A stretch of DNA of 64,000 nt, taken from the IMG/VR virus record IMGVR_UViG_3300036715_002711. One strand, given 5' to 3'. This document shows positions 1-49,816 of the stretch, in pieces. This stretch comes from an uncultured virus (IMG/VR IMGVR_UViG_3300036715_002711) (taxonomy: Duplodnaviria; Heunggongvirae; Uroviricota; Caudoviricetes). Every line of letters starts with the position of its first letter. Within the stretch, counting starts at the first letter, position 1. The notes beneath the pieces were generated by a model. The model saw only the letters and a list, made by a program, of their open reading frames with translations, was not told the origin of the DNA and made no database searches. The translations under genes and the position numbers were made by a program.

Positions 1-71
1 GAGAGAGAGGATTTGAACCTCTGACCTCTAGGTTATGAGCCTAGCGCTCTACCAGGCTGAGCTACTCCGCG
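1..71 (-). tRNA. tRNA with CAT anticodon (Met/fMet or Ile2), 3' end cut by window edge
   Basis: Reverse complement CGCGGAGTAGCTCAGCCTGGTAGAGCG CTAGG-CTCATAA-CCTAG AGGTC AGAGG-TTCAAAT-CCTCT. Confidence 0.85.
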
Positions 72-72
72 G

Positions 73-119
73 CAGATATGGACGGAATCGAACCGTCATG
101 ATAGCCCATGCTACATATC
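73..119 (-). ncRNA. mini tRNA-like element lacking an anticodon arm
   Basis: GATATG/CATATC acceptor-like stem, TAGC-ATGG-GCTA hairpin, canonical T arm GACGG-TTCGATT-CCGTC. Confidence 0.5.
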
Positions 120-124
120 AACTA

Positions 125-227
125 GAACGTGATCGGGCTTGATTCCGACTGCCCGTGTACTTTGGGCTTGTACGAGTGGGCTGGCCCACAAGATTTACAA
201 CCGTCCTTCCATCAGGACTGCACGTTC
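125..227 (-). ncRNA. aberrant tRNA-like RNA
   Basis: GAACGTG/CACGTTC closing stem, GTCCT/AGGAC D-like arm, non-canonical centre (TTGTA..TACAA enclosing GTGGG-CCAG-CCCAC), degenerate T arm. Confidence 0.45.
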
Positions 228-228
228 A

Positions 229-303
229 GGAGTCGGAACTGGGAATCGAACCCGAGGTCTACGGATTTGCAATCCGTCGCAAGAACCACTCTGCTATTCC
301 GAC
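229..303 (-). tRNA. tRNA-Cys(GCA)
   Basis: Cloverleaf; ACGGA-TTGCAAA-TCCGT anticodon arm; GGTTCGATTCC. Confidence 0.92.
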
Positions 304-457
304 ATAAGCCGGGCTTACACCGACATCATCGATTCAACGACTCTGACTAGTAGTTCCGCCGCTACCCTGCAACTGTAGGCGGGCCCTATGCCATGAGAAG
401 CCTTGCGGCTCCAGCTATCGGGGAGGACTGCAGGTCCAACGTCCGACAACTAACTTC

Positions 458-581
458 GGGGACAACTGTAGGAATCGAACCCACGTCACGTGTTGCTACA
501 CGTCGATGCGTTTATGCTAGCAGCTAGTCGCGCTTCGCTGTAAGCCTACTACATCTATCTCTACCACTGAGATAAGTCGTC
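458..581 (-). ncRNA. tRNA-like RNA with a 41-nt anticodon-loop expansion and long variable arm
   Basis: Acceptor GACGACT/AGTTGTC, D arm TCTC-AGTGGTA-GAGA, stem GATGT/GCATC around 41 nt, variable arm ACGTGT-AGCA-ACACGT, T arm GTGGG-TTCGATT-CCTAC. Confidence 0.7.
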
Positions 582-601
582 ATTGGCGGAGGCTGATCAA
601 G

Positions 602-689
602 TGGCGGAAGCGGTGAGATTCGAACTCACGGAGGATTTCTCCTCGCCGAATTTCAAGTCCGGTGCCTTAGGCCACTCGACCACGCTTCC
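602..689 (-). tRNA. tRNA-Ser(TGA)
   Basis: Class II cloverleaf, loop CTTGAAA, encoded CCA. Confidence 0.93.
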
Positions 690-804
690 TATTTCTCGAC
701 TTATACGTCAGCAACTGTGAATCACAATTACTGCATACAAATCGAAGATTGACTAAACGATTGTCATCATTCTCACCATTGATGTGATCAAGGATAAGTG
801 GCAT
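667..804 (-). pseudogene. HNH endonuclease C-terminal remnant running into tRNA-Ser
   Basis: Translates MPLILDHINGENDDNRLVNLRFVCSNCDSQLLTYKSRNRKRGRVA* (DHING..N..NL..C.NC HNH motif); below the ORF-track cutoff. Confidence 0.75.
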
Positions 805-929
805 CGGTTGCTCCAACCTCACGGTTGGCGATGGTATGTAGAGTTCCCACCCTTTTCACAGCTCGCGCTGGTAGTGCTTTCGGCCTAGCTGGGCGAACCA
901 TACTAGACACAGGACTGAAGCGCCCTAAA

Positions 930-1003
930 GGTGCGCACGGAAGGACTTGAACCTCCGACTTCCACCCGACAAGGATGGTACTCTTTCTCTGAGCTACGCG
1001 CGC
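930..1003 (-). tRNA. tRNA, probably Thr(TGT), atypical (C at position 37, short D loop without GG)
   Basis: GCGCGCG/CGTGCGC acceptor, CCATC-CTTGTCG-GGTGG anticodon arm, GGTTCAAGTCC. Confidence 0.6.
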
Positions 1004-1007
1004 ATGT

Positions 1008-1082
1008 TGGTGCCTGCGGAAGGAATCGAACCTCCGACGGCCCGCGTAAAAGGCGGGAACTCTACCACTGAGTTACACAGGA
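1008..1082 (-). tRNA. tRNA-Lys(TTT)
   Basis: CCCGC-CTTTTAC-GCGGG anticodon arm, encoded CCA; 1:72 mismatch. Confidence 0.85.
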
Positions 1083-1083
1083 C

Positions 1084-1183
1084 GGTGATTGCTGTAGGAT
1101 TCGAACCTACGTTGCACTGGCGATTCCTGCCATCCGCTTACGCGGGCAGGCCCTTGAGTTCTAAGCCGCTGAACTAAACAATC
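1084..1183 (-). ncRNA. tRNA-like RNA with anticodon arm replaced by a GNRA-capped extended stem
   Basis: Acceptor GATTGTT/AGCAATC-ACC, D arm GTTC..GAAC, T arm GTAGG-TTCGAAT-CCTAC; centre CCTGCC-CGC-GTAA-GCG-GAT-GGCAGG. Confidence 0.7.
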
Positions 1184-1256
1184 GGAGCGGGTAGAGGGAA
1201 TCGAACCCTCGTATTCTGCTTGGAAGGCAGCTGCTCTACCATTGAGCTACACCCGC
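1184..1256 (-). tRNA. tRNA-Gly(TCC)
   Basis: GCGGGTG acceptor, loop CTTCCAA. Confidence 0.95.
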
Positions 1257-1402
1257 AAAAATGATCTCGCTCAGGCTAAGCGGATCAAGATGACTTCCAC
1301 CGGCTGATTGCTAAGCAACCATTTCCGTCATCTTTACAGGCAGGTCGGGCCTATCAGCCGAACTAGACGATGCAGGTAACGACTGCATCGTCTCGTATTA
1401 GG

Positions 1403-1491
1403 GTTATGAACGAATGCCTACTTACGACTAAGGCGGGAGTTACCCGTTTGAATTTCCCTCGGCCTCCGGGCATCGAACCCGGCGTCATAAC
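1403..1491 (-). ncRNA. circularly permuted tRNA-like RNA (YrlA/Y-RNA-like topology candidate)
   Basis: GTTATGA...TCATAAC closing stem; order is T arm (CCGGG-TTCGATG-CCCGG), closed acceptor-like stem (AGGC..GGGA/TCCC-GCCT), D-like TAGTC..GGC. Confidence 0.5.
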
Positions 1492-1492
1492 T

Positions 1493-1568
1493 TGGTGGAG
1501 GATGGGAGGATCGAACTCCCGACCTACTGCTTGCAAAGCAGCCGCTCTCCCAGCTGAGCTAATCCCCC
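1493..1568 (-). tRNA. tRNA-Ala(TGC)
   Basis: GGGGGAT acceptor with G3-U70, loop TTTGCAA, CCA. Confidence 0.96.
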
Positions 1569-1748: not shown

Positions 1749-1823
1749 GGAGCGGGAAAGGAGACTCGAACTCCCGACCTTCTGCATGGCAAGCAGACGC
1801 TCTACCAACTGAGCTATTCCCGC
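1749..1823 (-). tRNA. tRNA-Gly(GCC)
   Basis: GCGGGAATAGCTCAGTTGGTAGAGCG, loop TTGCCAT. Confidence 0.96.
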
Positions 1824-2003: not shown

Positions 2004-2031
2004 ATTGTACACTAAATTTTGACCTTGTAAA
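2004..2031 (-). promoter_or_regulatory. sigma70-like promoter of the tRNA array
   Basis: TTTACA-N16-TACAAT; same motif family recurs across the window. Confidence 0.7.
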
Positions 2032-4770: not shown

Positions 4771-4845
4771 GGTCCGTCTAATCAGAATCGAACTGATGAC
4801 CTGTTCATTAGGAGTGAGCCGCTCTGTCCACTGAGCTATAGACGG
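4771..4845 (-). tRNA. tRNA-Arg(CCT)
   Basis: CCGTCTA/TAGACGG acceptor, loop CTCCTAA; own promoter TTTACT-N17-TATAAT at 4858-4886. Confidence 0.88.
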
Positions 4846-10468: not shown

Positions 10469-12568
10469 CTACAACATGACAGGAACGCCGATCTGGACCA
10501 GCATCTTCGTCGAAGAAAGCGCTGTTCCGACCTGCTGAACTAACGATCCAGTTGTCGAGTAAACAGTCGATGTTACCGCTCCCGCGGTTGTCGACAGGTA
10601 GACAGACCCGACGGTCAAGCCGGTCAAGTAAGGGTTCTCACCAGACAAGTAAACCACCACAGTGTCGGAGCTTGCGTAGTCCTCCATCACGAAGCCGGTT
10701 GCTTCGTACGGTGCATAAGCGTCAGCAGGCCTGACGCTTGCCATACCTGACGCGTTGTAGACCTGCACGAATTGACCTGCTGACAACGCCGTTGACGCTG
10801 TAGCGCGCACAGATGGTCCAACGGCCCATGCTTGCGGGATGCCGTAATTTGAAACAGTGGTAATAGCAGAATCGGGAGTACCTTGGAGCCACAAGTCGCC
10901 CGTCCAGATCACAGTCTCTGATGCAAGGCCTTTGGCCAAGAACGACAGCGTATGGTTTGTGCCCCCATCGCTTGTAAGCGTATACCGAACCTTCATAGCA
11001 CCGGTAGCCGAAGCGCCATTGCCGCCGATGCGCTTGAACAGCAAATCTGAGATTCGATTCGAGCTATTGCAAGTAACCGCACCTTGAATCTCCCAAATCA
11101 CCGAGTTCGCCGAACCGAGGGAGCTAGCTTGCAATACGCCACGCACAGTGAATGAGCAGCAATCAGCTATTGAAATTGCAGAGATCGTAGTTTCAGTTGC
11201 GTTGATTGTATCAGTAGAGATGCGCTCTAGAATGGTAGATGTATAATGACCTGTGCTGCCTGAAACAGAAGGCTTAGCACCCAACACAACTGTACCTTCA
11301 TTGCGAGCGGAATAACCGTTTGACGCCAATGATACGGCAAACTTAACACCTGTTGCAACTCGAGTGATTGAACCAATGGCAATAGAGCTGTCACCAGCTG
11401 CGTCAGCGCCATCACCGATGGCAACAGCATAACCTAAAGCCTGAGAAAATCCGCCGATGGCGATTCCATTGGTACCTGCTACCTTCGAATAGTCACCAAT
11501 TGCAATGCTGCTGGAATGCGTGCCAAAGTCACGAGCACCAGATCCTAGTGCAATCGAGCCACCATCAGCATAACTACCATATACGAGCGGATTTAGCAAC
11601 GCGGACCAATCGACACCAGCGCTATGTCGCTTATAAGCGCTATGCGTATATGATGGAGAAGAGGTCTCTGCAGGCCACGTCCAGACTGGCGCAAATGAAG
11701 CTGAATTGGTTAAAGTAATCTCGATGCCTAAGCTGTCGTTAAACGGCGGAGTAAAAATGATATCAGCAATTCCCAGCGTGCCATTAGTACCGGTTGACGT
11801 AATACTGACGGGTGAACCGCCTGGCGAAGCTGATACTTTTATCGTGTCTGACCCTGCAAAACCGTCACCTTGGGTAAAATCAACCACCCAGTACACTGTG
11901 CTGGTGGAAAGGCCAGCTGGCATCGTAGCGCCAGTACCTCTAAGCCTAAACTTAACAACAGAGCCAACTGCTGGGGCTGGGCCACCTGGCAGACCAATCT
12001 TTTCTGTTGACGTAGAAACATATGCTGCTTCAAGAAAGCCGTAATCTGATAAACGCGTCGCCCACATGCAATAGAATTTCATGCCTGCATGAATTTCGCG
12101 CGTGCCTGGCCAGTCAGGATGCCTTGTGATCGGCACAGCTGATAAAACGGAAGTTGAGCCTAGGACATAAAGTCCTTCATAGCCTCCATCTGTGTGAATG
12201 TATACAGTTTGACCAGTGACTGCACCTCCAGTAGCACCCACATTAAAGATATCAGCGCTACAATTAAGGGTGCTGCCCGTTTTGTCGAAGACAGTTATCG
12301 CAAAACCGTCTTCGATATACCAGTCAACAGGATAGCTGTCGTCTGAGGGCGCAGAGCTGCCACCTCCGCCAGCTCCCAACGTTGTCCAAGCGCTGCCGTT
12401 GTTGTACTCAACGCCGGGCGTGTCGCTGTTATAGCGGAGCAAGCCGGCATTGTTTGACGGCCGCTGAGCAGTAGTCCCCACCGGGAGCCATAGTGCACCA
12501 GTCGTGTTGACCTTGATGTATGACTGCTGGTGAGGGGTAATTGACTCCTGGTCAGAATCAAAGTCCAT
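10469..12568 (-). CDS. virion fibre/adhesin with YadA-head-like repeats
   Basis: SIALG/SIAIG/GIAIG/AVAIG repeats; N-terminal LPVGTTAQRP motif. Confidence 0.8.
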   Translation of the reverse strand: MDFDSDQESITPHQQSYIKVNTTGALWLPVGTTAQRPSNNAGLLRYNSDTPGVEYNNGSAWTTLGAGGGGSSAPSDDSYPVDWYIEDGFAITVFDKTGSTLNCSADIFNVGATGGAVTGQTVYIHTDGGYEGLYVLGSTSVLSAVPITRHPDWPGTREIHAGMKFYCMWATRLSDYGFLEAAYVSTSTEKIGLPGGPAPAVGSVVKFRLRGTGATMPAGLSTSTVYWVVDFTQGDGFAGSDTIKVSASPGGSPVSITSTGTNGTLGIADIIFTPPFNDSLGIEITLTNSASFAPVWTWPAETSSPSYTHSAYKRHSAGVDWSALLNPLVYGSYADGGSIALGSGARDFGTHSSSIAIGDYSKVAGTNGIAIGGFSQALGYAVAIGDGADAAGDSSIAIGSITRVATGVKFAVSLASNGYSARNEGTVVLGAKPSVSGSTGHYTSTILERISTDTINATETTISAISIADCCSFTVRGVLQASSLGSANSVIWEIQGAVTCNSSNRISDLLFKRIGGNGASATGAMKVRYTLTSDGGTNHTLSFLAKGLASETVIWTGDLWLQGTPDSAITTVSNYGIPQAWAVGPSVRATASTALSAGQFVQVYNASGMASVRPADAYAPYEATGFVMEDYASSDTVVVYLSGENPYLTGLTVGSVYLSTTAGAVTSTVYSTTGSLVQQVGTALSSTKMLVQIGVPVML

Positions 12569-12577
12569 GGGACCCTA

Positions 12578-15271
12578 TCAGTTCGTGATTTCGGTGGTGG
12601 TAGCCGTTGCAACCCAGCGGATGGTCTTGGAAGCTTCGCCCGTCACCGTGATGATCATGGCGCCGTTGGACGTGTCGGCCGTAACCGTTGCGTCCCACGC
12701 CGTGTTTGTCTCAGCGATCACTGTCTTCGACACGCTGCCGATGAGGGCGGTGGTCGATGCGTTAGCGTCGCGCTTGATCACACCTTGGAAGCGGTAGCCT
12801 GCCGAGCCGCCTGTTGCATCAGTCCGACGGCCGCCGACAACGATGTCAAAGACGAAAACCGAGTTGTTCGGCAACGCGAGACGAGTTGAAGAGCCGTTGA
12901 GGAAGAGCTCAGTTGCGGTTGCATTCGAGGTGTTGTTACGCAGTACGTAGAGGCCATTCTGAGCGTCACCTGCTGTAGCAAACTTGCCTTGAGCGAAGAC
13001 CTGACCGCCAGCGATACGCGAGTCAGTGCCGTCACCGATAGCCGTTGCGGCTGCGGCGGTCGCCGAAGCACCCGAACCGATAGCCACAGCGTTGGTGCCG
13101 CCGGCCGTTGGAGCGGTAGGCGAAGAGGCATTTTCCTTGTACAGCTGCAAGAAGGACAGGTCAGCTTGCACCAGGGCTCGGAAGGACGGTTGACCGGTCG
13201 AACCGTTCGGTGCAGCAAAGACCTTGTTGGTGGTCTGTGTTTGCAGCGTGAACGTCAGGGTGCCGGTGGTCGTGACAGGCGAGCCGGTGACCGTATAGAT
13301 CGGCGCGGTCGAAGCGTCAGACAGCGCAACCGACGTGACGCCGGTGTTGCTGACCGTGACAGCGCCAGTTGCGCCCGATACCGAGATGCCTGTACCTGCA
13401 ACGATCGAAGTCGCGCCGGTGTTAGCGATGGTAATAGCGCCGTTACCTTGCGTGACAGACACGCCCGTACCAGCTGTGACAACTTGGTTGGTCGAGTACC
13501 ACTGCGTAGTCGAAGCCGAGAAGAAGCTGACCTCACCGTTGACAGGCACCGCGATGCCTGCATTGGTAGCAGCGCCGTCGATGGCAGCGCCCGAAGCGGG
13601 GTAAACAACCAGCGGGTTAGCGCCACGGTTGACGATCGTAACTTCACGTCCGAACGGCGTAGCGGCCGTTGGCAGCACAACGCCTGTGCCCGAAGCAGTT
13701 GTTGTAACAGCGTTGTAATCAGATGTCAGCGCGGTGCCAGTACCTTGGTTTGTACCAGCGGCAGTGACGGTAGCAGAGATCGACTTCGACAGAGAGGTCG
13801 TGACACGCACTTCGCCTGGTGCTACGAAAGTAGACGGGGTGGACAGCGTAATCGAGCCGGTCGATGCAGAGGCTGTGATCTGGTTGGCGGTGCCAGCCAG
13901 AGCCGTGACGCCCGTGTTCGTGATCGTGACAGCGCCGGTTGCGCCTGAGACGCTGATAGCGGTACCTGCAACAGCGGAGGTTACGCCGGTGTTATTGATG
14001 GTGATCGAGTTAGCAGCGTGAGCAACTGAAACAGCCGTGCCAGCGGTGATCGTCTTGTATTCCAGGCCGGTTGCGCCGTTGTTTGCGCCGAGAACCTGGT
14101 TAGCTGTACCGATCGAGCTCAAACCGGTGCCGCCAATGGAGGTAGCGATTGGCGAAGTGATCGAGAACTGCGTGCCGGTCAGGGTCAGGCCCGTACCAGC
14201 CGTGTAGGTGCCTGCACCCGAGAACTGAACGAAAGTGATCGACGTTATGTTGAGAGTGCCGCCTTGGTTAGACGTGCAAACCCAGCCGGTGTCTGCGTTA
14301 GCGGTGCCTTCCTCAGCGAAGACGAAGCCACCTGGGATCTCAGACCATGCGTCAAAGTCAACGGCGCGAGTGGGCGCGCCAGAGCTGTTGACCGTGTAGA
14401 TACCGTTTTCAAGAGCAGATGCTTGGTTCTTGATCAGGATTCGGTCATTGGTAGCCAGCGTGACGCCGTCCACCGTAGAGCCGTTGGCGAAGGAGGACGC
14501 CAGGGTACCTGCTGCGGTAGTAGCAACGCGGACAGAGCCCTTCGGGTCCAGACCTTGCGCGATCGAGTCAACGTATGCCTTAGATGCAGCAGCCGTTGCG
14601 CCCGACGGTGTAGATGGGAGGCCGAGAACTTCACCGCCGCCTGAGAAGGTCAGGTTAGCGGTCGAAGTCATCGAGTCGCCGGCTTTGTTGACAGGCGTGT
14701 AGCCGAGAGCCGTCGTAATGTCTGACGAGCCCACAGAGGCGGTGGCGGTGACGCGACCGAAGGTGTCGGTGGTGATCTTGACAAACTGACCCGTAACAGC
14801 GGAGCCAGCGGTTGCCAGGTTGATCGTTGGGTTGCCTGAGACACCGTCGCCATTCGTTACGACGATGTTAGAGGCCGTGCCCGTGATAGTACGAGCAGAG
14901 TACGTGCCCGAACCAGTACGCGAGATGACGCCGTTGGCAGCGAGGCCCGACAAACCTTGCAGCTCAGTGCCGAGGGTCAGCGTGATCGTGCCCGATGTCG
15001 TGATCGGGGAGCCTGAAACGCCCAGGCCGGTTGAGCCCGAAACTGCTACGGAAGTAACAGAGCCTGAGCCTGAGCCGAGGGCAACCCAGGTTGAACCGCT
15101 CCAGTACTCGATGACGGTGTTATCGGTGTTCCAACGGAAAAAGCCCGGTGTAGGCGAGCCTGGACGTTGGGCAACCGTACCCGACGGCAAACCGAGCGCA
15201 CCTACTGCGCCGACGATCAGCGAGGTAGTTTGTGTTGGGGTAATTGTCTCGGTTAGAAAGTCAAAATCCAT
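12578..15271 (-). CDS. long tail-fibre-like virion protein
   Basis: Thr/Gly/Ser-rich; VTITNTGVTS repeats; LDPKGSVRVAT..DRILIKNQ..ENGIY fibre module; GGAGG RBS before MDFDFL. Confidence 0.85.
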   Translation of the reverse strand: MDFDFLTETITPTQTTSLIVGAVGALGLPSGTVAQRPGSPTPGFFRWNTDNTVIEYWSGSTWVALGSGSGSVTSVAVSGSTGLGVSGSPITTSGTITLTLGTELQGLSGLAANGVISRTGSGTYSARTITGTASNIVVTNGDGVSGNPTINLATAGSAVTGQFVKITTDTFGRVTATASVGSSDITTALGYTPVNKAGDSMTSTANLTFSGGGEVLGLPSTPSGATAAASKAYVDSIAQGLDPKGSVRVATTAAGTLASSFANGSTVDGVTLATNDRILIKNQASALENGIYTVNSSGAPTRAVDFDAWSEIPGGFVFAEEGTANADTGWVCTSNQGGTLNITSITFVQFSGAGTYTAGTGLTLTGTQFSITSPIATSIGGTGLSSIGTANQVLGANNGATGLEYKTITAGTAVSVAHAANSITINNTGVTSAVAGTAISVSGATGAVTITNTGVTALAGTANQITASASTGSITLSTPSTFVAPGEVRVTTSLSKSISATVTAAGTNQGTGTALTSDYNAVTTTASGTGVVLPTAATPFGREVTIVNRGANPLVVYPASGAAIDGAATNAGIAVPVNGEVSFFSASTTQWYSTNQVVTAGTGVSVTQGNGAITIANTGATSIVAGTGISVSGATGAVTVSNTGVTSVALSDASTAPIYTVTGSPVTTTGTLTFTLQTQTTNKVFAAPNGSTGQPSFRALVQADLSFLQLYKENASSPTAPTAGGTNAVAIGSGASATAAAATAIGDGTDSRIAGGQVFAQGKFATAGDAQNGLYVLRNNTSNATATELFLNGSSTRLALPNNSVFVFDIVVGGRRTDATGGSAGYRFQGVIKRDANASTTALIGSVSKTVIAETNTAWDATVTADTSNGAMIITVTGEASKTIRWVATATTTEITN

Positions 15272-22236: not shown

Positions 22237-22401
22237 TCAGTGAAGTTTAGCCCACCCGAACACCGACGATGTTGAGATCAGGCTTACGGGGGAACGGAAA
22301 AGTCGAGACGGCGTCTTGCAGTATGAGCAGACCGCTCGGCCTACCTTTGGCAGCTCCAGCGGAGCTTCACAAGGTTTGCATGTAGGTCGTTGCGAGTTCA
22401 T
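22237..22401 (-). CDS. small Zn-ribbon-like protein
   Basis: MNSQRPTCKPCEAPLE...VCSYCKTP, 54 aa, ATGA overlap with PARP stop. Confidence 0.55.
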   Translation of the reverse strand: MNSQRPTCKPCEAPLELPKVGRAVCSYCKTPSRLFRSPVSLISTSSVFGWAKLH

Positions 22402-23729
22402 TTGCCTGGCCCAAACTCGATCAGGTGGGTGATGTTCGCTTGGCCGAGGCGGAACACAATCATCTCGTTGTTCAGCACGCCGGACTGCTTGCCCTTGGCG
22501 AAGGTGCTGTCATAGCCAGCCGGCGGCGGAGTGTTGCGTGGGCTTGACGGCACATGATACTTGCCCATGGCCACATCGACAACAAACATGAAGCAGTTGT
22601 TGTCGTATCCACCACCGCCTTGCCAATAGCCATAGCTGTAGTTCAAGGACTTGGTGGACTGATCCGAGAAGTACAAGCCAGAGCCGAACATGGCGCCAGC
22701 GATGACCGCCGTCGGTAGCTGTTGTGGCATGACGAAGCCACGCTTCATGATGCTGAGCAGGTTGAAGATGCGCGAACCGTGCCACAGGCGCCACTGATTG
22801 TCCAGCTTGGCGCCGTCCAAGTCCCAAGCCGCCTTCATGTGCGGGATGGTCAGGCGGAAGCCGCGAATCGGGACCAAGTGCTTGGACGAATGGTTGTCGT
22901 TCTTGCCGTCATGGTACATCTTGACGATGTCGAGCCAGTCCTTGTCCTTGTCGCCCATGAGCTCGAGGCGCACGTCGAAGGATCGGGCCGGCGCCTGGGG
23001 CTGGTCAACCGGGGCGGCGGCAGCAACCGAGAGGCGTTGCTCGACAAGCTCGATCGAAGCGTCCAGCTGGTCCAGCAGGGAGACCTGCCGGGTCATTGCG
23101 GCGATGTCCGGCAAGAAGGAGGCGTGCCAGTTGCGGTGGCCGACACGTTGCGGTACCAGCATCAGGTAGTCGCTCAGGGCGCGCTTGAAGTCGGTGTTGT
23201 CGAAGTCAGCCTTCTTGACAAACGGCTCGAGCTTCGTGCCTAGGATGATGCGAGCCTGGTCAACGTTGGCCTTGGAGACCACGCCGACGGGAGTGCTGAT
23301 GACGCCGGTGGAGAGGTCGATGTCCATCTGACCGCCGGAGGCCAGCTGGATTTCATGCTTGTTGGCTTCAGCGAGCCTGGTGATCAGCGGCGCGAGAACC
23401 GGATCAGCGCCCGCGATGTCGCGGATAGCGGCTGTCTTGACGTGCGTTGAGGAGCCGGTCGGGCCTGATGGGCCCGTGGGTGCGGCCAAGACATCGATGG
23501 CGACGTAGCCACCCTTCTTGCCGTTCCACGGCTGAGTCTTTTCCTTGACCTTCTTGTCGAGCTTCGAGCGGTCATACGAGACGACGCCGTCGGATTGGAG
23601 AGAGCAGCCGATCCGACCGTACTCAATCTCCATGGTGTTATCGTCATACACCGTGTACTGCCAGACCTTGTTGTTGTTGGCCTCGGCGTCGCTCTTGACG
23701 AACTTCTTGACTTCAGTTACTTTTGCCAT
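22398..23729 (-). CDS. WGR-domain poly(ADP-ribose) polymerase-like protein
   Basis: NNNKVW..EYGRIG (WGR), helical regulatory region, LWHGSR, GAMFGSGLYFSDQSTKSLNY, NNEMIVF (H-Y-E triad). Confidence 0.92.
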   Translation of the reverse strand: MAKVTEVKKFVKSDAEANNNKVWQYTVYDDNTMEIEYGRIGCSLQSDGVVSYDRSKLDKKVKEKTQPWNGKKGGYVAIDVLAAPTGPSGPTGSSTHVKTAAIRDIAGADPVLAPLITRLAEANKHEIQLASGGQMDIDLSTGVISTPVGVVSKANVDQARIILGTKLEPFVKKADFDNTDFKRALSDYLMLVPQRVGHRNWHASFLPDIAAMTRQVSLLDQLDASIELVEQRLSVAAAAPVDQPQAPARSFDVRLELMGDKDKDWLDIVKMYHDGKNDNHSSKHLVPIRGFRLTIPHMKAAWDLDGAKLDNQWRLWHGSRIFNLLSIMKRGFVMPQQLPTAVIAGAMFGSGLYFSDQSTKSLNYSYGYWQGGGGYDNNCFMFVVDVAMGKYHVPSSPRNTPPPAGYDSTFAKGKQSGVLNNEMIVFRLGQANITHLIEFGPGK

Positions 23730-23789
23730 TGAACCTCTACCGTTATGAAGTGCGCCCTGATTGAGCGTCACGAGCTTATTTATAACGGA

Positions 23790-40782: not shown

Positions 40783-42234
40783 TCATACAGCGCAGCGAGC
40801 GCGGACTTCGTCCAGTGTGGTTTGATTGCTCAGCACGCCGTACTCGTAGACCGTCACCATCACGTCCTCGAACTCGTCGCTCAGCGGGCCTTGATCGATG
40901 CGTACCGTCGAGTACTCACCGGTCATCTTCGATCGAGCCAGCGTCAAGACGCCTTCCTTGGACTTCTTGCCCGGGTCCGTGATCGGGTCCTTGACGATGC
41001 CGACCCAGAGGTCCTTCGGAAAATCAATCGGGTTGTTCGTATTCGTGTCCTTGACAAGGATCGCCGAAGCCTTCATCGCGAACTTGAAGGTATCACGGTT
41101 GACCTTCTGCAGCAGGCCGCCGCCAGAGCCGAAGACGATGTTGTCGGGCGAGAAGTTCATCGCCATCAGGTTGCCCAGCAGGGTCTTCAGGGTCATGCGG
41201 TCAACACCGTCGCCCTGCAGGATGCCGATGCCTGGATACATCTTGACGTAGCCCTTGCTGGTCTTCGTGGTCGGGAAGGCCGAGCAGAAGAGGCGCATCA
41301 CACGCGGGATCACCTCGAGGGCGTCGCCGCTGTCGGGGCGGCAGACCAGCTTCATGCCCAGGCGGGTGTGCAGGTCGATGATGCGGTCCTTGAAGACGGT
41401 GCACAGCTGTTCAGCGAAGCGGTAGATGTCCTTCGTGTCGCCGACCAGGGAAATGATGTTGCCTTGGCCTTCAAACTTGGTCAGGGCGTGGTCGATGTAG
41501 GCGATCTCATCTTCGACAGACAGGCCGAAAGAGCAGGCAACGCTGTGCTCCGTGGCGCGCACCGAGAAGCCAGCCATCGAGTGGTCGTAGTAGAAGTTCG
41601 CGGTCCGAACGCCATCGATGGTGTCGGAGCCCATGAAGTTGACCAAGTGGGCGGCGCCGCCGATGCAGGCTTGGCCGCGGCTGGTGACGCCGCGTGCGCC
41701 GAAGTCGTGCAGCGAGAAGGGCAGGAAGCCGAGGTCGGCGCCAGCGACCTCGTAGAAGCGCTTGATCTCGAGCTTGGTGTCGTAGTCCAAGGAGGCGATG
41801 GTGGTCGGGTACCAGACGGCCCGGAGCAGCGAGGTCTCGATGTAGGAGGTCAGCCAGTAGAGGTCAGGGTCGACGCACTTGACCGTGACCAAGGCGTTGC
41901 CGCTGCGGACCGGCGTGCCCTCAGGGACGGCGCGGATCGTCAGGGGCAGGTAGCCGTTGTACTTGTTAACCACCTTGAGCCAACCGTCACGGCTGAAAGG
42001 CTCACCGTGGGCGGCGGCGAAGGCTTCAGCCTCGTCGATCATCTCGAGCGTGATCTGCACCGACAGGTACTCGCGCAGCCAGACTTGCAGGCCGAACGGG
42101 ACCATGATGTCGCGACCGCCGGTGCGGGCTTCGATGTAGGAGAACATGCCCCTCACATACTCAGGGTAGGCGAAGGCGTGGCACAGCTTGTAGCTGTCGG
42201 TGTCCAGGATGGGGTTGAATTGCAGGGTTGTCAT
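40783..42234 (-). CDS. nadV: nicotinamide phosphoribosyltransferase (NAMPT)
   Basis: LDTDSYK, WYPTTIAS, LHDFGARG, ATEHS, RPDSGD, QGDGV, FGSGGGLLQKVNRDT, KDPITDPGKKSK. Confidence 0.95.
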   Translation of the reverse strand: MTTLQFNPILDTDSYKLCHAFAYPEYVRGMFSYIEARTGGRDIMVPFGLQVWLREYLSVQITLEMIDEAEAFAAAHGEPFSRDGWLKVVNKYNGYLPLTIRAVPEGTPVRSGNALVTVKCVDPDLYWLTSYIETSLLRAVWYPTTIASLDYDTKLEIKRFYEVAGADLGFLPFSLHDFGARGVTSRGQACIGGAAHLVNFMGSDTIDGVRTANFYYDHSMAGFSVRATEHSVACSFGLSVEDEIAYIDHALTKFEGQGNIISLVGDTKDIYRFAEQLCTVFKDRIIDLHTRLGMKLVCRPDSGDALEVIPRVMRLFCSAFPTTKTSKGYVKMYPGIGILQGDGVDRMTLKTLLGNLMAMNFSPDNIVFGSGGGLLQKVNRDTFKFAMKASAILVKDTNTNNPIDFPKDLWVGIVKDPITDPGKKSKEGVLTLARSKMTGEYSTVRIDQGPLSDEFEDVMVTVYEYGVLSNQTTLDEVRARCAV

Positions 42235-42410
42235 GATTGCTCCAATCAGGAAGAACGGTGCTGCCGCTTGGGTGGCACGATACTTTTGAATCAGCTCGTG
42301 AATCTTGCCAATGAGCAGCATTGGGATGTCCACGGCAAAGAAGAGGATGATGAGGATGCCGAAGAAACATAGTCGTCAGAGCTACAGCCGATGAACTGGA
42401 CAGTAGTAGA

Positions 42411-43598
42411 TCACGTCAACGTCTCGCGGTCGATGTGGCCCATGGCCCATTCAACAATTGCGTGGTGGTCCTCGAACCACATGTCCATGCGCTCGAGCGC
42501 CTCGCTGATCGGCAGCCAGAAGCATTCGATCACGTCGCACTCAGGATCGGTGTTGCCCTGCTTCATGCCCTTGACTTGGGGCAACGGCTTCATGTCATCG
42601 AGCCGGAAGAAGTAGGCGTGCGTGATCGTGCGGCCACGGTCCGAACGGTCCGGCTTGTCGAAGACCTGCTCCGCACGGATCGAGCCGCGCAGGATGTCAG
42701 TCGTGATCTTCTTGACCTTGACTGGGTCCTTGCCTTCGGTCAGCTTGATCTTGGTCTCTTCGATCACTTCGCGAATGCATGCGCTACGGAGGCGCTCATT
42801 GGCGTTCACAAAGCCGCCAGGAAGCGCCCAAAGACCCTTGCCAGGCTCGTGGCCACGCACCACCGTGAGGATGTGACCGGATTGCACGATGACGCCGTCC
42901 ACCGTCTGGTAGATCGGCGGATACGGGTAGGCTTTGGCGCGCTCCTTGTAGGCGCAGACGTGTTTGTAGGTCTCGACCAGCGATGCAAACTCGGGCGTGC
43001 TCTTGAAGCGCTCCATGTTGAGAAGTGTTGTGTCAGGCACGACATCCGGGATGTGAGTCCCCTCGCCGCCGAACAGCCACGAACGCACGTCGGTGGCGCT
43101 CACATTGAGCACGCCGTTCTGCCGGTAGGGCTCGACAAAGATCGTCTTCCACTGCGGGAAGGCGTGCAGGTACCAGGTGCTCTCGTCACGATCAGAGCCG
43201 ATCAGGTTGATGTTAGGAGCTGCTTGCTCCTTCCACATCCGGCTTTCGATTGCGGTCTTGACGATGCTTTGGACGCTGCGCTGCCACAGCATGTCGTTGT
43301 ACGGGTAGTCGCGCGACGGCCGAACGGAGAGCGTGCCCCAGCTGTCATCCAGCGGCATGTTGCGTTCATACCACTGGACGATCATCTGCTTCCGCTCGGC
43401 GAACGTGAAGGGGTTCTTCAGCGAGCGGGATAGGCCACTTGAACCGACAAGCACGATGACCAACCTGCCGCGCCTGAGCGCTTCTTGCAGGACATGGGCG
43501 TGCCCGAGGTGGAAGGGATTGAAGCGACCGTTGTAGACGATGACGTCCCTAAACACGGCGCTAACCTCATGCTTCTTGGTGGGGATTACTGATGCCAT
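42411..43598 (-). CDS. nadM: bifunctional NMN adenylyltransferase / ADP-ribose pyrophosphatase (NadM-Nudix)
   Basis: GRFNPFHLGH, KNPFTFAER, SATDVR, LWALPGGF..REVIEET, RSDRGRTITHA, FEDH; promoter at 43650-43678. Confidence 0.93.
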   Translation of the reverse strand: MASVIPTKKHEVSAVFRDVIVYNGRFNPFHLGHAHVLQEALRRGRLVIVLVGSSGLSRSLKNPFTFAERKQMIVQWYERNMPLDDSWGTLSVRPSRDYPYNDMLWQRSVQSIVKTAIESRMWKEQAAPNINLIGSDRDESTWYLHAFPQWKTIFVEPYRQNGVLNVSATDVRSWLFGGEGTHIPDVVPDTTLLNMERFKSTPEFASLVETYKHVCAYKERAKAYPYPPIYQTVDGVIVQSGHILTVVRGHEPGKGLWALPGGFVNANERLRSACIREVIEETKIKLTEGKDPVKVKKITTDILRGSIRAEQVFDKPDRSDRGRTITHAYFFRLDDMKPLPQVKGMKQGNTDPECDVIECFWLPISEALERMDMWFEDHHAIVEWAMGHIDRETLT

Positions 43599-48973: not shown

Positions 48974-49816
48974 TTAAGAGTTGAGCCAGGCGGTGAAGTC
49001 GCCCGGCTTGGAATCCTTGCTGATGTTACCTAGCAGGTAGATTACCTCGCTAGCGTCACGGATGCGGGGTACTTCGATGGGCGTGAAGGCCGAGCCTGCA
49101 TTGATTTCCTTCACCATGTCGAAGTGCCTCTCGTAGTAGTGGAACGAGTCGGCGATGTGGTGGTAAGAGCCCATCTGCAGGTCAGGGTAAGCGAAGTCAC
49201 GCAGACAGACGTAGACCATCTCTTGAATCAACGAGAAAGCCGGCGCGTCATTGCCCATGCCGAAGACAGCGTCCTGACTGCGCATGTGCACGCTCATCTT
49301 TAGCTCGTTGTCGCGGATGCGGAAGTTGAGGGCGTAGGTGCAAGGAAAGTCCTTGGTCGCTGGGTTGAGCAGGTGGCTGCGATTGAGGATGGTCGCCGAG
49401 GCACGGCGAGAGTCCTTGTCGCGCTGCAGCTCAGCGATGATCGCCGAGAACTGGCTCTTGTGCGCCAACGGAACTCCGATGCTCAACGGCGTGCGCCACT
49501 GATCATCACCACGACCGAAGACGTGAGCGCCGTAGTGCGAGTTGATGGTGCCGTCGGGGTTGGGCAGCTCTTGCCAGAGAGAGGCGGCGTCCACGATGCT
49601 GAGGTCAAACGGGTCGGCCTTCAGGTACCAGAGAAGCTCTTTCTTGACGTAGCCAAGCTTCAGCTTGCGAGCGTCAAAGTTGGCGAAGCGAGCATAAGGC
49701 GGCAGCTCGTAAGCATAGTTCTCGACCTCGATGACCTTCTGGCCACGGGGTGAGCACTCTTGGCCGGCAGCGACATCAGCGTAGATCTTGCGGAATGCTT
49801 GTTCAATTTCAGACAT
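48974..49816 (-). CDS. thymidylate-synthase-fold dCMP hydroxymethylase/methylase-like enzyme
   Basis: DSRRA, DFPCT, MRSQDAVFGMGND (Asp where ThyA has Asn), SFHYYERHF. Confidence 0.8.
   Translation of the reverse strand: MSEIEQAFRKIYADVAAGQECSPRGQKVIEVENYAYELPPYARFANFDARKLKLGYVKKELLWYLKADPFDLSIVDAASLWQELPNPDGTINSHYGAHVFGRGDDQWRTPLSIGVPLAHKSQFSAIIAELQRDKDSRRASATILNRSHLLNPATKDFPCTYALNFRIRDNELKMSVHMRSQDAVFGMGNDAPAFSLIQEMVYVCLRDFAYPDLQMGSYHHIADSFHYYERHFDMVKEINAGSAFTPIEVPRIRDASEVIYLLGNISKDSKPGDFTAWLNS

Follow-up and report, generated by a model that had tools for sequence, protein, structure and literature searches.

The 64,000-nucleotide (nt) stretch of DNA from the uncultured virus IMGVR_UViG_3300036715_002711 (Caudoviricetes), hereafter the window, carries in its first 1.8 kb, on the minus strand, an array of transfer RNA (tRNA) genes in which five further units are interleaved, namely E1 (73..119), E2 (125..227), E3 (460..581), E4 (1086..1183) and E5 (1403..1491). 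These units are predicted to be tRNA-derived, non-decoding small RNAs forming part of a polycistronic phage tRNA transcript, a reading which we consider evenly poised between right and wrong. In functional terms, E3, E4 and probably E2 would be tRNA-bodied small RNAs displaying a non-decoding hairpin domain, with E1 being a remnant and E5 uncertain, and the chances for and against this assignment appear to us about equal as well. In kind, the units seem to match RNA1, RNA2 and RNA3 of phage T5 and RNAC and RNAD of phage T4.

Layout of the array

The ordinary tRNAs were identified with ARAGORN and Rfam, and the resulting layout bears out both the five positions and the strand shared with normal tRNAs that had been proposed in the initial annotation of this DNA. 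All five elements occupy gaps between ordinary tRNAs at a distance of 0-20 nt from their neighbours: E5 starts 1 nt past tRNA-Ala, E4 follows the encoded UCC of tRNA-Gly(UCC) without a gap and leaves 3 nt to tRNA-Lys, E3 is separated by 20 nt from the tRNA-Ser upstream of it, E2 starts 1 nt past the UCCU end of tRNA-Cys, and E1 lies about 5 nt past E2 and 1-2 nt before tRNA(CAU). An N73-CC end is encoded in all seven complete ordinary tRNAs as well as in E3 (C-CC) and E4 (A-CC). On the minus strand, a promoter-like site (TTTACA-16 nt-TACAAT, 2004..2031, 10 of 12 consensus matches) is located just downstream of a terminator-like hairpin (2051-2068), so that the array is probably one transcript, with this site as its likely predicted start; such sites come from a consensus scan only, which found five of them against a mean of 1.3 in shuffles.

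Structure of the five elements

The folds described here are minimum-energy (MFE) predictions, and z-scores are given relative to 200 shuffles. E1 is a mini tRNA-like unit of only 47 nt, whose unconstrained MFE structure, supported by the centroid and recovered by the strict module scan described below, is a three-way junction: the acceptor stem has 6 bp (plus a U-U pair), the D position is taken by a 4-bp hairpin with the loop AUGG, and the T arm, of 5 bp, carries the loop UUCGAUU. E2 (103 nt) folds as a five-arm cloverleaf, the unconstrained MFE structure being identical to the centroid (z = -2.68, a value reached by 3 of 200 shuffles). It possesses a 7-bp acceptor stem, a 5-bp D-like arm with the loop GAUGGA, a 5-bp stem in the place of the anticodon stem closing a 23-nt insert that holds its own hairpin, a 4-bp hairpin resembling a variable arm, and a T-like arm, the 8-nt loop of which is degenerate, as had been noted initially.

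E3 (122 nt) has a class-II-type tRNA body, seen in its MFE cloverleaf, in the module scan and in a match of 34.0 bits to the Rfam tRNA model, with a 7-bp acceptor stem, a canonical D arm (loop AGUGGUA), a canonical T arm and a 6-bp variable arm; the 5-bp stem at the anticodon position encloses 41 nt in place of the 7-nt loop. E4 (98 nt, 41.0 bits, also found by the module scan) has a class-I tRNA body with canonical D and T arms and a variable loop of 4 nt, its anticodon arm being swapped for a bulged helix of about 15 bp capped with a GUAA tetraloop. The E4 cloverleaf was obtained under constraint, at -30.2 kcal/mol versus -30.9 kcal/mol for the MFE structure, that is, 0.7 apart.

E5 (89 nt, z = -1.61) folds by MFE as a three/four-way junction, closed by a 7-bp stem, in which a central hairpin is accompanied by a weak one of 3 bp, while the hairpin CCGGG-UUCGAUG-CCCGG, which has the sequence of a T loop, sits at the position of the D arm. 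As modelled, E5 is the weakest and the least tRNA-like of the five. The paired acceptor-, D- and T-like arms initially ascribed to every element are present in E2-E4, if the degenerate T loop of E2 is accepted, and are represented in E1 by an acceptor stem, a T arm and a hairpin in the D position; the description fits E5, with its displaced T-loop hairpin, only in part.

Resemblance to tRNA beyond single folds

E3 and E4 score above the gathering score of the Rfam tRNA model (RF00005, 29 bits) with every arm aligned, despite 69 nt standing where the model expects 18 in the case of E3, and 38 nt where it expects 13 in the case of E4. E1, E2 and E5 have no Rfam tRNA match at E<=10, a cutoff at which positions 1-2400 of the window yielded solely tRNA matches plus a weak one to YrlA.

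A strict scan was performed for a module in which a 5-bp T stem carrying the loop TTYRANB is joined without a gap to a 7-bp acceptor stem, with a mismatch allowed at 1-72 and a unit length of 40-170 nt. All 11 modules that it returned from the 64-kb window are on the minus strand, the plus strand having none; they comprise seven ordinary tRNAs, E1, E3, E4 and one chance-like module in a coding region at 13409. In 60 dinucleotide shuffles of the whole window, the number of modules averaged 0.68 and never exceeded 3, which corresponds to an approximately 16-fold enrichment. The combination of a 7-bp acceptor stem with a 5-bp T stem and a UUCRANY loop is complete in E3 and E4 and is found in E1 with 6 bp and the U-U pair; it is not present in E2, owing to the degenerate loop, or in E5, owing to the T-like hairpin at the D position.

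Read from the sequence, all five elements have acceptor, D and T stems made up of standard pairs only, three of them G-U, with no mismatch; cmscan flags a mismatch in three ordinary tRNAs of the array. E3 and E4 moreover retain U8, A14, G18-G19, A21, G15:C48, G53:C61 and U54-U55-C56-A58, which are the nucleotides making the contacts of the tRNA elbow, including the Levitt pair.

Absence of a decoding arm

The claim that the elements are tRNA-shaped and yet non-decoding was confirmed. ARAGORN calls no tRNA in E1-E5 and no transfer-messenger RNA (tmRNA) in the window, and an exhaustive test of the E2, E3 and E4 centres, taken whole or after excision of one contiguous segment, gave no solution for an anticodon arm (5-bp stem, 7-nt loop, U33 and R37), while 18 solutions were obtained for an insertion-bearing tRNA of a relative used as the positive control. 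The anticodon arm is wholly missing from E1, and none is present in the E5 fold. A single insertion into a normal anticodon arm could not, moreover, give rise to the E4 centre.

It is very improbable, in the light of this test, that the elements are working tRNA genes with introns or insertions spliced out of the RNA. Such a reading would account for the scores of E3 and E4 above the Rfam threshold with the extra bases located at the anticodon arm, and the relative's tRNA just mentioned carries an anticodon-loop insertion of about 32 nt, the removal of which could restore a normal loop. However, since no single excision yields an anticodon loop, E2-E4 are not intron-bearing tRNAs, and E1 has no anticodon arm at all. 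Both bulges of the E4 helix are on one strand and so do not make up a bulge-helix-bulge motif, and the inserts, with 23-41 nt, fall far below the size of group I introns.

Comparison with the tRNA-like RNAs of T5 and T4

The closest known parallels are found in the tRNA regions of cultured phages. In the T5 record NC_005859, RNA1 (144 nt) and RNA2 (125 nt) are annotated within the tRNA region as "tRNA-like stable RNA with unknown functions" and RNA3 (73 nt) as "putative tRNA-like RNA". RNA1 and RNA2 fold with an acceptor stem, a T arm and an expanded centre, as the elements do, and the Rfam tRNA match to RNA1 is below threshold, with 24 bits over 131 nt and a long insertion, as in E3 and E4. 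Like the three T5 RNAs, the elements are located within a phage tRNA region, on the tRNA strand and abutting tRNAs; their closing stem is of the acceptor type, a T arm is present, and the enlarged or substituted centre lacks an anticodon loop (E1-E4, and E5 in part). They differ in having no sequence similarity to the T5 RNAs by blastn against phage records, which gave no homology to the T4 RNAs either (for E5 through the whole-array query only), and in their number, with five units in 1.5 kb including a 47-nt form that has no anticodon arm; furthermore, the T5 RNAs are annotated as stable RNAs, whereas those of the window are predicted from sequence.

T4 RNAC and RNAD, also called species 1 and 2 RNAs, are described in the cited passages as small RNAs from the phage tRNA region with unknown roles (PMC3014915, PMC9697503), and the elements are likened to them by this description, not by sequence or fold. 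The tRNA-like stable RNAs of T5 and T4 are in any case a kind of RNA and not a homology group.

Maintenance or decay of the elements

The main alternative is that all five elements are dead tRNA genes at different stages of decay in a fast-turnover array and have no function, their stems being intact either since the damage is recent or since a foldable unit is better tolerated in a polycistronic precursor. We regard this explanation, including its account of the stems, as possible but somewhat unlikely. Several observations favour it and count against the functional reading.

One of them concerns E1. Compared with a normal 83-nt tRNA-Met(CAU) of a relative (L079 6575-6657), its 5' 10 nt are identical at 8 positions and its 3' 23 nt at 21, the four differences amounting to two compensatory acceptor pairs, and the D loop, the anticodon arm and the variable arm are deleted. 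From this alignment, E1 is best read as a multi-deletion derivative of a tRNA(CAU) gene, from which it follows that tRNA genes do decay within this array. As regards E5, the array is nearly letter-for-letter the same in four DNA sequencing runs, so no covariation can be obtained from them, and the runs listed for this DNA include none of RNA. In run X2, one of the four near-identical natural populations, the sole difference within any element is the lack of 15 nt at 1409. The deleted segment is flanked by short direct repeats, and with its loss the predicted E5 fold is left without the weak hairpin and becomes a tidy three-way junction closed by a 9-bp stem, a change that fits either a dispensable arm or relaxed constraint.

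The centres of E1-E5 are mutually unrelated and similarity is confined to generic tRNA arms, as would be expected from independent accidents; the word "family" used in the initial annotation is thus not appropriate, the five sharing no sequence similarity beyond these arms. No homologue of any centre was found in five relatives, GenBank phages, IMG/VR pattern searches, metagenome contigs or prokaryote genomes. E1, E2 and E5 have no encoded CC, and tRNA content and order vary strongly among relatives. The folding z-scores (-1.4 to -2.7 for E1-E5 versus -1.0 to -2.9 for the seven real tRNAs of the array) are tRNA-like and not exceptional, and do not set the elements apart from tRNAs or from chance sharply enough to be decisive.

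On the other side, decay does not readily explain why the body stems of all five are free of mismatches though the centres of E2, E4 and E5 require several mutational steps, why every tertiary nucleotide is retained in E3 and E4, or why the centres are well-formed hairpins and not scrambled anticodon arms. Relatives, as described below, have conserved this design and show covariation in it, and such RNAs are annotated as stable in the T5 record. The initial argument that intact stems speak against random decay is consequently reasonable for E2-E4, with no mismatch in the body stems and with the tertiary nucleotides of E3 and E4 kept, but cannot be extended to all five, E1 being a deletion derivative and E5 having a 15-nt-deletion variant. 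On the functional reading, E3, E4 and probably E2 would have been kept by selection as tRNA-bodied RNAs.

Search for homologues

In the whole records of five distant relatives (G002-G006, with 45-57% identity in one shared protein), matches to the elements were limited to ordinary tRNAs and T arms, and a sensitive blastn search against their arrays gave again only these. Searching 50,697 GenBank phage records with E1+E2, E3 and E4 by blastn returned nothing except a T-arm match, E5 being covered there by the whole-array query only. Among the patterns run against IMG/VR, those built from the E1 T arm plus hairpin and from the E3 D arm gave no match, and the one combining D loop, gap and T loop of E4 gave 49 loci, all of them class-II or unrelated odd tRNAs. 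The 3' half of E4 had no match in metagenome contigs, and the 3' halves of E4 and E3 had none in 185,579 prokaryote genomes.

Neighbouring genes were no more helpful as anchors. For the protein encoded at 2203-2742 there is no relative in IMG/VR or metagenome contigs, no relative was found for the protein at 10472-12568, and the topoisomerase led only to another fragment of the same phage, which does not contain the array. The NMT1-like protein identified 10 loci in distant relatives (45-57% identity), none of which has adjoining tRNAs, showing that synteny is not kept. The lack of homologues in relatives, which had been named at the outset as an outcome that would refute the proposal, is therefore formally what was found, and is accounted for by there being no close relative with the array in the collections searched.

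tRNA-like RNAs and Ro60 in distant relatives

Although the elements themselves have no homologues there, the arrays of G002-G006 and one further contig contain many long tRNA-like genes. One family of 125-140 nt is present in four distinct contigs (L078:4954-5080(-), L079:4954-5078(-), L081:4970-5109(+) and L082:4972-5101(+)). Its members have D and T arms and end in an encoded ACCA, and the place of the anticodon arm is taken by the invariant centre AACAUCGAUUGC ... AUUGGUUAUC. Across the four contigs, compensatory changes are seen in 8 of 33 predicted pairs, and the only Rfam match is a weak tmRNA-type one of 26.6 bits.

The members of a second family have motifs in common with a permuted YrlA-like RNA from G003. 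The tRNA array of that relative contains two permuted YrlA-like RNAs (L014:7448-7564 and ~10640-10760, minus strand), the Rfam YrlA score of 39.1 bits being under the 69-bit threshold, and in three relatives these motifs (GCCGC..., a GNRA hairpin and UUAUC..AAGCAG) recur in RNAs of ordinary tRNA topology with open acceptor ends (L013:8635-8768(+), L016:6058-6181(+) and L020:7217-7354(-)). Judging by these shared motifs, the latter might represent a re-permuted Y RNA. A TROVE (Ro60) protein of 571-583 aa is encoded in each of the two near-complete relatives searched, G002 and G003 (genes at L021 and L022). Neither RNA family was found in the visible array of the window, where the motifs CCGCCUC and GUUAUC are absent and AAGCAG occurs only inside ordinary tRNAs and the leader.

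These findings raise the question of whether the elements are Y-RNA-like partners of a phage Ro60, in which a tRNA-like module with its ends at the acceptor stem would be joined to a long helix bound by the Ro60 ring, as in YrlA. The TROVE genes of G002 and G003 and the YrlA-like RNAs just described are in favour of it, as is the long bulged helix of E4, which is in the right place, and the cited part of PMC7824862 describes jumbo phages with TROVE and a cellular TROVE working with a tRNA-like partner. The likeness to YrlA of M. smegmatis, which according to the passage cited is cleaved by RNase P and has CCA added to it (PMC4201824), lies in a tRNA-like module of acceptor, T and D arms with no decoding arm. 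Against this, YrlA is circularly permuted and ends in the Ro-binding helix, whereas E1-E5 have their ends at the acceptor stem. Within the window, YrlA (RF02553) scores at best 30.2 bits, over positions 18-121 with E1 and part of tRNA(CAU), well under the threshold of 69 bits. YrlA carries GNCGAAN0-1G and is located near Ro60, and neither feature was found for E1-E5: the motif is in none of the elements, its sole match in the array being in a spacer at 884, and no TROVE gene is present among the 75 open reading frames of the window or in the 134-kb record G001 of the same phage, which together cover 157 kb of a genome estimated at about 360 kb. With the motifs of the relatives missing from the elements as well, a Y-RNA role is improbable.

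Some other features of the relatives' arrays deserve mention. GTT(T)ATC is strongly biased to the sense strand, with 10 occurrences versus 0 in L013 (G004), 9 versus 3 in L014 (G003) and 12 versus 1 in L016 (G002), is often located in loops of odd tRNA-like units and is missing from the array of the window; it may be a protein-binding or processing signal. The tRNA with the anticodon-loop insertion referred to above, L014:4229-4333(-), has an Rfam score of 55 bits; the roughly 32 additional nt form a 9-bp hairpin with a GUUUAU loop, and the gene may be an insertion-bearing or spliced phage tRNA. ARAGORN reads L014 3698-3784 as an odd tRNA-Ser(CGA) and predicts a permuted tmRNA with the tag ANEANYRMAA* at L005:20305-20704(+) in G003.

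Possible processing and function

If the elements are functional, their maturation could follow that of ordinary phage tRNAs. Host RNase P would cut the 5' end of each acceptor stem, as between packed tRNAs, and the 3' ends would be trimmed and completed to CCA, with the CC already encoded in E3 and E4. The precursors of T4 RNAC and RNAD are substrates of RNase P. This enzyme separates the units of packed tRNA operons by itself, as stated in the part of PMC2190699 referred to here, and it also processes the tRNA-like domain of tmRNA, according to the corresponding part of PMC3985003. The elements resemble that domain in having an acceptor stem and a T arm with no anticodon arm; unlike tmRNA, they are 47-122 nt long, have neither a tag reading frame nor G3:U70, and are not called by ARAGORN.

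The L-shaped body would stabilise the RNA in the way exploited in engineered tRNA scaffolds, where, as described in the cited portion of PMC3753655, an insert replaces the anticodon stem-loop, the product is recognised by cellular factors of E. coli, and the approach rests on precisely processed RNAs escaping degradation. The layout of the tRNA scaffold of Ponchon and Dardel is that of E3 and E4, with the acceptor, T and D arms kept and a hairpin-closed insert, but such scaffolds are man-made and the likeness is in working principle, not in descent. The replaced centre would then be displayed as a payload, namely the 15-bp GUAA-capped helix of E4 and the multi-hairpin domains of E2 and E3, whose most likely role would be to bind or titrate a protein recognising the tRNA body or the displayed hairpin.

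A broader version of this idea, which we put forward tentatively and consider rather unlikely, is that the tRNA body serves as a natural expression and stabilisation scaffold in this jumbo-phage clade and in phages generally, including T4 and T5, each array carrying a changing battery of hairpin payloads. The targets might then be, with as much reserve, Ro60-type ribonucleoproteins, tRNA-binding toxins reading the acceptor/T-arm half, or RNA-processing enzymes; and E2, E3 and E4 could, in the same speculative vein, be effectors, with E1 and E5 as intermediates of birth or death.

The initial annotation had suggested instead that the elements are decoys or sponges for host defence enzymes targeting tRNA, or substrates of a phage repair pair consisting of Rnl1 and Pnk. 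A T4-type Rnl1 is indeed encoded in the window (Pfam RNA_lig_T4_1, 4e-24; PHROG 562, 9e-71), together with a small kinase of weak similarity to Pnk (PHROG 505, 6e-11), and the tRNA bodies are intact. However, the anticodon nucleases PrrC and RloC act on the anticodon loop, which is missing in all five elements, and this disfavours the nuclease-decoy idea; the two repair genes are 23-34 kb away from the array with no linkage to it, and no paper on phage tRNA-like decoys, or on the function of the T5 tRNA-like RNAs, was found in a literature search, older T4 and T5 papers being outside its reach. We consider the proposal quite improbable.

As to the wider meaning of these units, the tRNA clusters of T4 and T5 were found decades ago to contain tRNA-like stable RNAs. 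The recurrence of the design in the window, with its five units in 1.5 kb, and the conserved, covarying families in relatives suggest that small RNAs with a tRNA body make up a class widespread among phages and so far overlooked, to which the window adds two clean examples (E3 and E4) and a probable intermediate of birth or death (E1). For annotation purposes, such units are neither tRNAs nor plain spacers.

Genome and gene content

The 75 open reading frames of the window include genes coding for topoisomerase II, a PARP-like protein and the Rnl1 mentioned above. The PARP-like protein (22401-23771), NAMPT (40786-42333) and an NMNAT-Nudix protein (42414-43598) make up an NAD+ salvage set, and a second enzyme of the thymidylate synthase family (48977-49816) is present beside ThyA, these four genes all being on the minus strand. 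This NAD+/thymidylate gene set is typical of large phages rebuilding NAD+, and DNA modification may be involved also. The nearest cultured phages are Ralstonia phage RsoM2USA and Xanthomonas jumbo phages, with 40-48% identity in the topoisomerase. The record G001 belongs to the same phage, sharing 99.995% identity over 20 kb; it starts at position 23702 of the window and has no tRNA, and its 134 kb at 37% completeness (CheckV) point to a genome of about 360 kb.

Ordinary tRNAs and spacers of the array

The first unit of the visible array is tRNA-Gly(GCC) (1749..1823), followed on the minus strand by tRNA-Ala(UGC) (1493..1568, encoded ACCA), tRNA-Gly(UCC) (1184..1256, encoded UCC end), tRNA-Lys(UUU) (1008..1082), tRNA-Thr(UGU) (930..1003), tRNA-Ser(UGA) (602..689) and tRNA-Cys(GCA) (229..303, encoded UCCU end, Rfam 57.6 bits), each of them identified by both ARAGORN and Rfam. 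The last unit, tRNA(CAU) (3..71), is truncated by the window start and matches positions 5-66 of the Rfam tRNA model with 55.9 bits; one contig reaches 401 nt further than position 1 of the window. A solitary tRNA-Arg is located at 4771..4845 according to the ARAGORN/Rfam survey of the window. The anticodon loop of tRNA-Thr(UGU) is CUUGUCG, with C instead of the usual purine at position 37, and the Rfam alignment of tRNA-Lys(UUU) has a 1-72 mismatch; odd loop features of phage tRNAs might bear on the evasion of tRNA-cleaving defences.

The spacers of the array were compared with shuffles in the same manner, and S1 and S4 have no structure beyond them by folding z-score. Spacers S2 (690-929) and S3 (1257-1402), in contrast, are much more structured on the minus strand than their shuffles, with z = -3.97 for S2, on the sense strand only, and z = -4.21 for S3, none of 200 shuffles being as low in either case. 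S2 ends in a long near-perfect terminal hairpin, and from these folding models both spacers may be additional small RNAs or processing signals.

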